From a virus (lineage: Duplodnaviria > Heunggongvirae > Uroviricota > Caudoviricetes), in IMG/VR virus record IMGVR_UViG_2695420746_000008: a stretch of 6,217 bases of DNA; one strand, written 5' to 3'. Both the position numbers and the translations under genes were made by a program. Positions 1,949 to 6,217 of this stretch are shown piece by piece. The notes beneath the pieces are model-generated. The model saw nothing but the letters and a program-made list of their open reading frames with translations, was not told the DNA's origin and searched no databases. Each line of letters begins with the position of its first letter. The stretch's first letter is position 1.

Positions 1949-2230
1949 TTATCCAGTGACGGTAGTCGAGGCTAAGGGCTTTTTTAACCTCGCATCCGCG
2001 CCTGCGGTAACACTGAATGAGCCATTCGGCCTGTTCTTCAGTGCATGGGGGATGCTGGTACCAATCAGATTTAAATGCGTGAGAGCGCCGCCCGTGCCTG
2101 CTGGCAAAGACGGCTGAATTATCAGAATTGTGTAGTCTGGAAGGCAGTGGCTGACAATAGCGCCATTCTCAACGCGCACAGTATAGAGGCCATCTTCACT
2201 AAAAATTTCACGTAATTCTTCGATTTTCAT
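1949..2230 (-). CDS. Hypothetical small protein (93 aa) at the position occupied by rem in Qin-type prophages
   Basis: ATG at 2230 with GGAAGGA 8 nt upstream (the track starts 3 nt earlier at a TTG). First ~30 residues (MKIEELREIFSEDGLYTVRVENGAIVSH) look protein-like and G is enriched at codon position 1; the C-terminal half is compositionally odd. Same frame as the DUF968 ORF, separated from it by a TAA and 75 nt. Confidence 0.5.
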   Translation of the reverse strand: MKIEELREIFSEDGLYTVRVENGAIVSHCLPDYTILIIQPSLPAGTGGALTHLNLIGTSIPHALKNRPNGSFSVTAGADARLKKPLASTTVTG

Positions 2231-2311
2231 CAACAGAATCCTTCCAGATAAATAGCACTCCCCTGTTCGGGGTCCATCCCTCTTCTCCCTGCGCGCTACT
2301 TAAGTGAGTCG

Positions 2312-2339
2312 ATTCTATCTGCGAAGGTGCGCGAATCAA
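2312..2339 (-). promoter_or_regulatory. Candidate sigma70 promoter (TTGATT-16 nt-TAGAAT) for the rem-like/DUF968/rusA/Q transcription unit
   Basis: On the minus strand the -35 TTGATT is at 2339..2334 and the -10 TAGAAT at 2317..2312 with a 16-nt spacer, about 80 nt upstream of the ATG at 2230. Hexamer match only; no experimental support. Confidence 0.25.
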
Positions 2340-2360
2340 ATTCACCGGAAATAAACAACA

Positions 2361-2399
2361 AAAAACCCGCCGAAACGCTGAGAGATCACAGCGATGGGC
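2361..2399 (-). terminator. Rho-independent terminator-like hairpin plus U-tract (3'-end module copy A)
   Basis: Minus strand reads CCCGCC...(CGCTG-tgatctct-CAGCG)...GGCGGG followed by TTTTT (plus-strand AAAAA at 2361-2365). GC stem with a U-run; the loop is unusually large because of a 22-nt insertion relative to copy B. Confidence 0.4.
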
Positions 2400-2438
2400 G
2401 GGTTAAGTGCGGGTGCGTTGAGGATGCCTGACACATCA
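2399..2438. repeat. 40-nt direct repeat, copy A (cgggttaagtgcgggtgcgttgaggatgcctgacacatca); abuts the N-run
   Basis: Exact 40-nt identity with 2592-2631. The upstream flank (aaaaacccgccgaaacg) is also shared apart from a 22-nt insertion in copy A. On the minus strand this is the sequence lying just 5' of the U-tract terminator. Confidence 0.9.
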
Positions 2439-2441
2439 AAG

Positions 2442-3056: not shown

Positions 3057-3743
3057 TCACTCCTTCTCTTCTTTACCGTAGTGGAGTTGACCAATTTTGA
3101 TAAGAGGGCGTCCCTGAGATTTGCGGTGTAGATTGGTATCGCGCAGAGAATACACACAGCCACAATATTCCTGCTGATAGAATTTTTCGCGCTTGCTGAT
3201 TTCAATCATACGGGACGAGCCGCCCTGCTTGCGCCAGTTATAATCCCAGTACACCATGCCCGGATAATGCGCGACGGCTCGCCGCCCACAGTCGTTAACC
3301 TGCTGCATATTTTTCCAGCGTGAAATGCCCAGTGAACTGCTGATCACACTGAAACCATTTTCAGCGGCGTACAGCGCTGTCCGCTCAAAACGCATGTCAA
3401 AACACATGGTGCAACGGATCCCTCGTTCGGGCTCCCATTCCATTCCTTTGGCTCGTTCAAACCAGTTGTCTGTGTCGTAATCAGCATCAATAAACGGCAC
3501 GCCGTGTTGTTCAGCAAAGCGAATATTCTCATCCTTACGAATTAAATACTCTTTCTGAGGATGAATGTTCGGGTTGTAGAAAAAGATGGTGTAGTCGATT
3601 CCCGAGGCCTGAAGCGCCTCCATCACCTCACCGGAACATGGAGCACAGCAAGAGTGCAGTAGTAGTTTGTTTGCCCCGTTTGGGAGCTCCAATTTGGGCC
3701 GTTTGAAATCAGCAACTGTCATAAATATGTTTATTGGGGTCAT
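3057..3743 (-). CDS. queH: QueH-like protein (DUF208; epoxyqueuosine reductase family, Fe-S)
   Basis: 228-aa ORF with the N-terminal [11 protein letters not shown] motif that I recognise as the DUF208/QueH hallmark, plus additional Cys residues (CTMCFD, CGC). No obvious Shine-Dalgarno before the ATG at 3743; an alternative ATG is at 3722. The family call rests on motif recollection only. Confidence 0.7.
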
Positions 3744-3890: not shown

Positions 3891-4304
3891 TTATTCAGTT
3901 CTGGATTTTGTCGCCCTGCGTATCCGCGCTTTCGCGTTACGCTCAATCTGTATCAGCTTTTCTATATTTCTCCGCCTTTCCTGTTCCTCCTGGCGCAATA
4001 GCCTTACATCATCTGCCAGTCTGGTTTCTCTTTTTGCCACAGAGAGCATCCAGTCAAACGGCTCCACAACCGCACCGCAGATTTTACAGCGGACCTGACG
4101 CTCTTTTTCGTCAACCCGGACAGAGGCGTGATGGCAATATGGTCTTTCCGATGGCTCATAAAGAAAATTAACCTGATTACGAGGGTCATCCTCTTTTACC
4201 GGAAATAAAACGATATTGCTTAACTCATCTTCTGGTTTTATTTCCATGCTCCTCTCCTTTGATGCGAATGCCAGCGGTAATTGAAGCCTGATAGCTAATT
4301 TCAT
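3891..4304 (-). CDS. Hypothetical zinc-ribbon protein with basic coiled-coil C-terminus (137 aa; 118 aa if started at ATG 4247)
   Basis: Track ORF. It has a C-x-HH...C-x2-C cluster (YCHHASVRVDEKERQVRCKICG) and an Arg/Glu-rich C-terminal helix. Two possible starts: ATG 4304 directly after the upstream stop (TGA|ATG, GGAGG 10 nt upstream) or ATG 4247 (AAGGAGAGGAG upstream). Confidence 0.65.
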   Translation of the reverse strand: MKLAIRLQLPLAFASKERSMEIKPEDELSNIVLFPVKEDDPRNQVNFLYEPSERPYCHHASVRVDEKERQVRCKICGAVVEPFDWMLSVAKRETRLADDVRLLRQEEQERRRNIEKLIQIERNAKARIRRATKSRTE

Positions 4305-4727
4305 TCACAGTATCGCCTCCTGAAAATTACCCTGATAGAAAGCCAGTACACGCTGCATAGCTTCGCTCTTCCGGCACTCGCGACAGATTATATTCAGGCG
4401 CCTGTCGTAGCGGCGTATTTCTCCGTCAGGTAATGACCAGATAAGGTCCGGATCAACAACAACCGGTTTCCTCACCTTTACTCTCGAGAGTTTTTTGCGG
4501 GCGCTTTGCCAGTCCTTGCGAGCCTGTTCAGACGGGAATAAGCCGTAGCCAGAATTATATACATCACCACTTGCGACCAGTTCTATGCATAAGCGACCGA
4601 CAGACGCACGACTGATACCTGTTTCATCTGACAACTGCCGAATCGTGACCCGACCGTCCTGATGCACGAGTTCCACAATTCGCGTCTTCAGTTCTTCCCG
4701 CTGTTCGGGAGTAAAAGGTTTCGCCAT
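4305..4727 (-). CDS. Hypothetical winged-HTH DNA-binding protein (140 aa) with C-terminal CxxC
   Basis: Track ORF with ATG at 4727 and AGGAGGA 4 nt upstream. N-terminal HTH-like segment (RVTIRQLSDETGISRASVGRLCIEL) and C-terminal CRECRK. The stop abuts the next gene. Confidence 0.7.
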   Translation of the reverse strand: MAKPFTPEQREELKTRIVELVHQDGRVTIRQLSDETGISRASVGRLCIELVASGDVYNSGYGLFPSEQARKDWQSARKKLSRVKVRKPVVVDPDLIWSLPDGEIRRYDRRLNIICRECRKSEAMQRVLAFYQGNFQEAIL

Positions 4728-4741
4728 AAATCCTCCTGAAA

Positions 4742-5488
4742 CTACTTAACAACCCTCGAATGGCTAACATTCGGACGCCAGCTCTCCCAGTTAAAATTCA
4801 CCCAGCGCCCGCCGTTCATGACCATGCGATCCATCACCCGCTCGCCGAGCAATGTTTTCATCACCTCATAGTTCAGGTTTGTCAGCATCCCCACGCTGCG
4901 CATCGACGCTGTCCGGCGATCAACAATCTGGTGCAGCACCACCTGCTCGTTTTTCGTCTCGCGCTGAATGCCAATTTCATCAAGAACCAGCAGATCCACT
5001 TCGCACAGCTCCCGCAAAAATTTTTCGCCTGACTGCCCGTCGTCATAGCTGGCGTGCAGGGCGCTCATAACATCAGCCACGGTAACCACAATCACTGTCT
5101 GACCGTCTTTCAGCAGGCGATTCCCGATAGCTGCCGCTAAGTGATTCTTCCCGGTACCAGGTTTTCCGCTGAACGCAAAATTTGTACACCCGGTCATCAG
5201 TTCATCGGCGATGGATTTCGCCTGGCTTAACGCGTATCGCTGGCCGTCGTTCTGCACCTGGTAATTCGCAAACGAGCATTTACGGTGCAACGGCTGGATG
5301 CCTGAGCGATTCAGAATTTTTTCCACCCGCAACTGGCGATTCAGGCGGTTGATCTCCTCGCTACGTTTCTGGCCTTCAGCAAGTTGCCACTCGCGCCACT
5401 CCGCTACCGTTCTGAATGGGGCGGTTACATGTGGCGGGGTCAGTCGGCGGATGCGTTCCAGAACGCCGCCTGTCGCAATATTTTTCAT
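4742..5488 (-). CDS. DnaC-like replicative helicase loader (AAA+ ATPase; phage P-function analogue)
   Basis: 248 aa. Walker A FSGKPGTGKNHLAAAI and Walker B DLLVLDEIG are present. The protein is collinear with E. coli DnaC along its whole length (e.g. LTNLNYEVMKTLLGERVMDRM vs LTNSNMEEMTKLLGERVMDRM, from memory). Confidence 0.93.
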   Translation of the reverse strand: MKNIATGGVLERIRRLTPPHVTAPFRTVAEWREWQLAEGQKRSEEINRLNRQLRVEKILNRSGIQPLHRKCSFANYQVQNDGQRYALSQAKSIADELMTGCTNFAFSGKPGTGKNHLAAAIGNRLLKDGQTVIVVTVADVMSALHASYDDGQSGEKFLRELCEVDLLVLDEIGIQRETKNEQVVLHQIVDRRTASMRSVGMLTNLNYEVMKTLLGERVMDRMVMNGGRWVNFNWESWRPNVSHSRVVK

Positions 5489-5494
5489 GGTCCG

Positions 5495-6217
5495 TTACCC
5501 CCTGAAGCCTGGCGGGATCGCACTGTCCGGCAACGAGACGGTGTTAACCTGTCGGAGCAACGTCTCAGGCCGAACACCTTTCGGCGCGAACAGGCCCTGG
5601 TATTCATTGGCGATGCTGTGTCGAATCACCTGCTCAGGTGTAAAACCCTGCTGACGGAATTTTTCCAGTTCCCGTATCGCCCCGTTAGCGCCCTGCTCCG
5701 TTCGAATCGGTTTTCGCAATGCCTGTCTGAACCGGACCCACTCATGCCAGAGTGTTTCCGGCAACCAATCGGGCAGCTCAATAGCCTCCGGCTCGAATTT
5801 TTTAGACGCTCGTTTTTGGCGAGGGGGAGATCAGTATTTAGATCTTCCTCTTCCTCTTCCTCTGGTAACGCTTTTTGATCCGTTTGTGTAACGCTGGCAG
5901 CGTTACCTTTTCGTTTCAGTTCGCGTATTTTTGTTACTCGCTCGTTTGTAACCGCCCGTTTTTTTTAGAGCTTTTTCCGTTATGACGTTCAAAGTTAGGT
6001 AGAGAAAGCCCTCCGTCATTTTCGACCAGCCATCCAACCTGAATTAACGCATCAGCAAAACCAGACATAAAAGTGATGCGATCTATTGCACTTTTTGTAA
6101 CGCCGCGAGCGTTACAATCTGCATTACCGTCTATCATTTGTTGATCCGCCCATGCCCAGAAGCGAATAACCTGAGGTAGCCTGAGTTTAACGGACACTCC
6201 TTCCTGAAATAGAATGG
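5495..6217 (-). pseudogene. Replication initiation protein with DnaT-like C-terminal domain (YdaU-like); frame broken by two -1 shifts at A-tracts; 5' end beyond the window
   Basis: Three consecutive minus-strand frames are needed: frame A (open from the window edge to TAA at 5934), frame C (about 5964 to 5770, KKRAVTNERVTKIRELKRKGNAASVTQTDQKALPEEEEEEDLNTDLPLAKNER) and frame B (5830 to 5495). Frame B has no ATG and only a TTG at 5764. Its C-terminus VNTVSLPDSAIPPGFRG matches the E. coli DnaT C-terminus VNTVSEPDSQIPPGFRG. Frame switches coincide with A8 (plus 5959-5966) and A6 (plus 5798-5803). Confidence 0.6.
5844..5861. repeat. (CTTCCT)3 hexanucleotide tandem repeat, encoding a Glu6 acidic linker on the minus strand
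   Basis: Direct reading: cttcct cttcct cttcct. In minus frame C this is GAG GAA GAG GAA GAG GAA. Confidence 0.9.

Follow-up and report, generated by a model that had tools for sequence, protein, structure and literature searches.

In Rac and Rac-like prophages of Escherichia coli, ydaU is found directly upstream of ydaV and its product is composed of an N-terminal domain followed by a basic/acidic linker and a DnaT-like C-terminus. The genes ydaUVW were counted among those "without determined functions" in a 2023 paper (PMC11014345), and a literature search combining ydaU, ydaV and replication found no papers. In Shigella, the elements IS1, IS2, IS4, IS600 and IS911 have expanded and each reference genome contains at least 199 pseudogenes (PMC7373316). 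The stretch of DNA analysed here (the window, 6,217 nt) carries a gene with the same location next to ydaV and the same domain order as ydaU of Rac-like prophages. In silico analyses indicate that it is almost certainly a genuine ydaU pseudogene, with three independent lesions, in a decayed Rac-like prophage of Shigella sonnei.

The ydaU remnant and its intact orthologues

By similarity, the minus strand of positions 5495-6217 is assigned to the ydaU replication-initiator gene of a decayed Rac-like lambdoid prophage of S. sonnei, an identification that also draws on synteny with ydaV. The coding segments are the following:

4742-5488, minus strand: ydaV, an intact DnaC/IstB-like helicase-loader gene directly downstream of ydaU (Pfam IstB_IS21, 1e-19; RefSeq)
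5495-5828, minus strand: ydaU piece 3, codons 153-262 and stop, DnaT-like C-terminal domain (tblastn)
5829-5958, minus strand: ydaU piece 2, codons 106 to ca. 150, basic stretch, Glu6 linker and DLNTDLP (tblastn and alignment)
5961-6170, minus strand: ydaU piece 1, codons 36-105, N-terminal domain (tblastn and alignment with intact genes)

When the intact 262-aa E. coli YdaU was compared with the window by tblastn, three matching pieces were obtained on the minus strand between 6170 and 5498, each in a different frame (aa 33-105 at 6179-5961 in frame -3, aa 104-162 at 5964-5785 in frame -2 and aa 152-262 at 5830-5498 in frame -1; E-values of 1e-62 to 8e-75). Together they account for aa 36-262 of YdaU, each with 97-100% identity over the homologous part. 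This confirms the first-pass annotation in reading a single initiator gene over three frames. Three-frame translation of the minus strand over 5440-6217 gave the corresponding open stretches. The first reads ...VIRFWAWADQQ...HNGKSSKK and is followed by NGRLQTSE and a stop, the frame remaining open past the A8 run until a TAA at 5934-5936. The second reads KKRAVTNERV...PEEEEEEDLNTDLP, beyond which the residues are out of frame, and the third PPRQKRASKKFEPEAIELPDWLPE...IPPGFRG and a stop, after which the next gene begins. In piece 3, 110 of 111 aligned residues are identical to those of intact YdaU, the sole mismatch occurring at a deletion scar (see below). The spacing between the ydaU stop (5495-5497) and the ydaV ATG (5488) is 3-6 nt.

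A megablast search of complete E. coli genomes and of phages showed that hundreds of Rac-like prophages carry a matching region upstream of ydaV. In all E. coli and phage orthologues examined, the gene is a single 789-nt ORF of 262 aa that adjoins ydaV and contains an A6 tract, which disposes of the idea that orthologues might consist of separate small genes. This intact ORF is variously annotated as "hypothetical protein", "ydaU", "DNA replication protein O" or "phage replication initiator YdaU family protein", the latter being the RefSeq name of one intact orthologue, and its product matches PHROG 2509 "replication initiation protein" at 1e-89. The window gene shares both the similarity and the synteny of the YdaU family, with ydaV on one side and, in four S. 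sonnei loci (L011-L014), ydaT found across an IS element on the ydaS/ydaT side. It lacks the single uninterrupted ORF and is thus a pseudogene of that family.

Residues 170-262 of YdaU show significant similarity to the C-terminal, ssDNA-binding domain of DnaT (PDB 2ru8, E = 9.5e-5 by phmmer against PDB; PDB 9zbt is also matched, E = 3.2e-4), and the end motif NTVS.PDS.IPPGFRG is nearly identical in both proteins. The likeness to this primosomal protein of E. coli concerns aa 92-179 of DnaT and is limited to the C-terminal domain of YdaU. The only NCBIfam match was to the DnaT model and remained below threshold (16 bits for a cut-off of 201), covering the last 19 residues only. YdaU is a phage initiator and not DnaT. 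No Pfam family was matched at E<=0.01 by intact YdaU or by window fragments 1 and 3, and a search with the two YdaU domains taken apart at E<=10 returned only a chance-level GATase_5 match for the C-terminal domain (E 0.28); the domain identity thus rests on PHROGs and PDB. The succession of N-terminal domain, acidic linker and DnaT-like C-terminus that had been read from the window alone agrees with PHROG 2509 and with the DnaT alignment, the common end motif included, and the Glu6 linker is indeed present.

Two 19-bp palindromes of the form GTAACGC-N5-GCGTTAC were also detected within ydaU (5888-5906 and 6097-6115), with none expected by chance from shuffled sequences, and are kept in intact orthologues. 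A related GTTAC-N10-GTAAC occurs at 5934-5953; the GTTAC/GTAAC stem pointed out in the first-pass annotation is part of this motif set. By analogy with the lambda origin, which lies inside gene O, these palindromes may be candidate initiator-binding sites or origin iterons. Rac has been reported to carry an active origin, oriJ (PMC3945230).

Lesions separating the three pieces

To read the lesions, the window was first aligned with three intact genes, and ten more loci were subsequently added. The features involved are listed below:

5798-5803, minus strand: A6 run of wild-type length, no lesion (alignment with intact genes)
5822-5828, minus strand: last remaining copy of TCCCCCT, scar of the 10-bp deletion (lesion 3; alignment)
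5845-5862, minus strand: (GAGGAA)3 hexanucleotide repeat encoding the Glu6 linker (alignment)
5959-5966, minus strand (T8 on the plus strand): A8 homopolymer (lesion 2; alignment)
6169-6171, no strand assigned: 3-bp target-site duplication, GGT on the gene strand (junction comparison)
6172-6217, plus strand: end of IS600 (IS3 family), terminal 46 bp, with left inverted-repeat end TGAGGTAGCC... (sequence matches, RefSeq)

The first frame change is located, as previously suggested, at the A8 run (T8 on the plus strand, 5959-5966). This tract had been regarded as one A short of a wild-type A9. All intact genes have A6 at this place, which rules out an ancestral A9 that lost one A; the tract of the window has gained two bases (+2), with a change of frame after codon 105.

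The second frame change had been attributed to the A6 run at 5798-5803. This run is wild type: it is identical in FDAARGOS_944, in COL60J and in loci L006 and L008, phage Rac having AAACAA there. The frame is in fact changed by the loss of 10 bp (TCCCCCTAAA) between direct repeats of 7 bp (TCCCCCT), a deletion that in the sense of the gene sits ca. 20 nt upstream of the A6 run. Where intact genes read GATC-TCCCCCT-AAA-TCCCCCT-CGCC, the window reads GATC-TCCCCCT-CGCC, with a single copy left at 5822-5828. The earlier misplacement is explained by both frames being open from the scar to the A6 run.

Between these two lesions, the (GAGGAA)n repeat varies in copy number among S. sonnei genomes, always in frame and without any resulting frame shift. 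Three units are found in the window, in L009, L011, L012 and L014 and in intact E. coli genes, four in AR-0030, six in L005 and L013 and seven in 53G. When the lesions are set aside, a single synonymous substitution distinguishes the remnant from its closest intact allele (L006), which suggests recent decay; taken alone, this near-lack of substitutions could also be read as residual constraint.

The third and larger lesion, which had escaped the first-pass annotation, is an IS600 insertion that removes the start codon. Homology to ydaU ends at window position 6171, the first homologous codon being codon 36 (position 6170), and related complete genomes carry codons 1-35 beyond a 1.26-kb IS. In the window itself the element runs past the edge, and its transposase orfA would begin just beyond 6217. 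For the last 46 bases (positions 1-50 of the query), thousands of matching sites were found in E. coli chromosomes, in plasmids and in Stx phages. The element was identified from its ORFs and from the RefSeq annotation of E. coli: IS3-family orfA and orfB adjoin the same end in a phage copy (NCBIfam transpos_IS3, 7e-100), and RefSeq gives the name "IS3-like element IS600 family transposase". The whole IS, of 1263-1264 bp, occurs at this junction in L005, L009 and L011-L014. In L005 and L011-L014, the two junctions (marked by a slash) read ...GGGAAGGT/TGAGGTGTAC... and ...CTACCTCA/GGTTATTCGC, and the uninterrupted target site is GGGAAGGTTATTCGC. The element, read as a whole in these other loci, thus displays TG...CA termini, orfA/orfB, a size of ca. 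1.26 kb and a 3-bp duplication, and its transposase reads away from the ydaU remnant. In L009 (CP146292.2, ca. 1040-1054), the sequence beyond IS600 is unrelated (AGCGAGGCAGCTCAC/TGAGG...) and does not correspond to the ydaU 5' fragment, which implies that IS600 has mediated a rearrangement or a deletion there.

One of the ORFs currently annotated on the remnant starts within this insertion. The GTG at 6197 ("MSVKLRLPQ"), which had been taken for the N-terminus of ydaU, is IS600 end sequence (6172-6217) read through into ydaU. An 87-aa ORF called "putative bacteriophage protein" in many S. sonnei records has its GTG start within the IS600 terminal repeat, and a GGAAGGAG motif directly abuts that GTG, too near for normal Shine-Dalgarno spacing; this start is an annotation artefact. 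The exact chimeric 87-aa sequence is carried by 492 public contigs and is a named S. sonnei protein (e.g. FORC11_0721), a 67-aa version starting at an internal ATG occurs on 73 more contigs, and a 74-aa product has been called by gene callers on 458 contigs. The short ORFs called here are by-products, and the 87-aa and 74-aa hypothetical ORFs annotated in hundreds of S. sonnei assemblies are to be regarded as pseudogene fragments.

Recurrence in S. sonnei and the probable course of decay

Ten loci were obtained by exact look-up of the YdaV protein of the window. Eight are from S. sonnei (seven complete chromosomes and one 4.86-Mb contig) and all of these carry the 10-bp deletion; the run is A8 in seven and A9 in the remaining one, strain 53G, and the IS600 junction is found in six. 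The other two loci, whose ydaU product is named E. coli, have A6, no deletion and no IS. The co-occurrence of A8 and the deletion in seven of eight S. sonnei loci, together with the 492 contigs carrying the chimeric ORF, bears out genuine pseudogenisation, one of the explanations first put forward. Three of the genomes have been genotyped (strain and genotype from PMC10924462, which gives 2.8.2 for 53G, 2.1 for AR-0030 and 3.7 for 2015C-3566):

HE616528, S. sonnei 53G, genotype 2.8.2: A9, deletion, no IS
CP032523, S. sonnei AR-0030, genotype 2.1: A8, deletion, no IS
CP022457, S. sonnei 2015C-3566, genotype 3.7: A8, deletion, IS600

Among the genomes sampled, strains of S. sonnei thus differ in the IS600 junction, in the A8/A9 run and in (GAGGAA)n. 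In the three genotyped genomes, the IS600 junction followed lineage, being absent from the two lineage-2 genomes and present in that of genotype 3.7. In 53G (HE616528; L010, ca. 2500-2520), A9 brings back the frame across the first frame change and gives a 224-aa ORF, which is still cut off by the 10-bp deletion. This product has no exact-sequence entry in the protein cluster look-up, the A9 having been read from the 53G DNA. A partial S. sonnei protein (P0002, "SSKKKRAV") indicates that the A9 allele exists independently of 53G, which shows that the A run is mutable within S. sonnei.

The decay of the gene would have proceeded by three kinds of events. Replication slippage between the TCCCCCT repeats would have removed 10 bp, uncoupling the DnaT-like C-terminal domain, and replication slippage in the A tract would have extended A6 to A8, shifting the frame after codon 105. 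IS600 inserted after codon 35 with duplication of GGT and cuts the downstream part of the gene off from its promoter, its start codon and codons 1-35. The deletion and the A-tract expansion probably came first, before lineages 2 and 3 split, and one extra A would then have been gained in a subclade related to 53G. Given that A8 is present both in AR-0030 (2.1) and in the genotype 3.7 genome, the A9 of 53G is more simply derived from A8 by the gain of one A. IS600 would have been acquired later, in lineage 3, because it is absent from the two lineage-2 genomes and present in the genotype 3.7 genome. The resulting remnant is presumably not expressed, although its fragments may give products at a low level.

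Over 3625 bp, the window is free of gaps and identical to four complete S. sonnei chromosomes except for a SNP at 4119, outside ydaU (C in the window and A in the four genomes). Elsewhere in the window, a gap of 87 N is found at 2442-2528 with the end of an IS1 directly after it, a sequence present at 70,331 places in E. coli genomes under the annotation IS1A. Near-duplicate segments flank the N run (2360-2441 and 2529-2635); in complete S. sonnei genomes a single copy is present, and it continues into sequence that shares only 96.7% identity with window 2143-2441. The N run resembles a scaffold gap within an IS1, at which paralogous prophage segments may have been joined. Apparently intact genes occur at 2674-2886, 3057-3743 and 4305-4727; they encode a Hok/Gef-type toxin, a QueH-family protein and a DUF977 protein, respectively, the names being taken from Pfam marks on identical genes of related loci.

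Alternative readings and comparison with described systems

It is very unlikely, yet could occur, that part of the remnant retains a role, either as a DnaT-like ORF translated from an internal TTG and still working with YdaV or the host primosome, or as an N-terminal fragment whose frame is restored, in small amounts, by RNA-polymerase slippage on A8/A9. If either were true, the remnant would be a domesticated fragment and not junk. The proposition that the fragments are functional stand-alone genes, for instance a 74-89-aa DnaT-like peptide starting at an internal TTG and translationally coupled to ydaV, is very improbable. The C-terminal ORF is devoid of substitutions and ends 3-6 nt before the ydaV start, and a 74-aa product is annotated on 458 contigs. 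However, an absence of substitutions is expected in a pseudogene of recent origin, the starts available, TTG codons at 5764 and 5719, are putative only, such an architecture is native in no orthologue, and the rest of the prophage region is riddled with IS.

There is similarly very little chance that programmed -1 frameshifting at A_AAA_AAC, or transcriptional slippage on A8, restores a functional initiator. RNA-polymerase slippage is possible on long A/T runs in enterobacteria, the heptamer A_AAA_AAC matches the register of the incoming frame, and the A9 allele of 53G restores the frame across the A8 site. Yet the orthologues, with A6 and a single ORF, have no need for any shift, and no conserved split-frame arrangement was found in the E. 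coli and phage orthologues examined. The GTTAC/GTAAC stem that had been proposed as a stimulator is unchanged in these intact genes, and folding of the 76 nt spanning the run and the region downstream was no better than that of shuffled sequences (MFE -8.1 kcal/mol, z = 0.12), so that no downstream stimulatory RNA structure was detected by this comparison. An X_XXY_YYZ heptamer occurs in register at the first frame change only, the second being a deletion without slippery site, and IS600 deprives the gene of its start and of codons 1-35. A slip at A8, however perfect, would leave the product without its N-terminus and without an in-frame DnaT-like domain. Slips at both of the supposed sites would not rebuild the protein because of the IS in front of them, and full-length YdaU cannot be made in this strain by any combination of slips. 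Low-level transcriptional slippage on A8 would be inconsequential, the downstream deletion and the upstream IS preventing a full-length product anyway. Slippage-dependent expression, entertained in the first-pass annotation, was rejected on these grounds: an unconserved frame change, no stimulatory structure, a deletion at the second break and a missing start.

It is barely conceivable that ydaU is undamaged and that its frame breaks are sequencing or assembly artefacts. One lesion does lie in a homopolymer, and the window comes from a draft-like assembly (with an 87-N gap beside an IS1 end and its edge within IS600). However, seven further S. sonnei assemblies also show A8, the chimeric ORF recurs unchanged on 492 contigs, the second break, as a deletion of 10 bp, is no homopolymer miscount, complete genomes reproduce the IS600 junction with its target-site duplication, and the A9 and A7 tracts anticipated for an intact gene are contradicted by an intact tract of A6.

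Pseudogenisation, the preferred reading, provides a clean worked example of prophage-gene decay in Shigella, combining a direct-repeat deletion, homopolymer drift and IS600; its biological weight is small. It also calls for caution, a gene in three frames with A runs near its breaks mimicking programmed slippage until intact orthologues are aligned.

When compared to described systems, the locus has one point in common with the shifts at A_AAA_AAG in dnaX, in orfAB of the IS3 family and by slippage on A/T runs, namely that its first frame change occurs at an A run containing a formally slippery heptamer. It differs from these systems in that the frame change is unconserved, no structure is present, the second change is a deletion and the gene has no start. 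Unlike YdaU of the Rac type, the window gene is interrupted by IS600, carries +2 and -10 frameshifts and has no intact ORF. The locus does not represent a new type of element, and its fragments are already in public annotation. The closest likeness is with the pseudogenisation by IS and indels described in Shigella (PMC7373316): an IS600 insertion, here lineage-specific, with a 3-bp duplication in a coding sequence, and small indels in addition, with no substantive difference, so that this ydaU is another example in a prophage gene.
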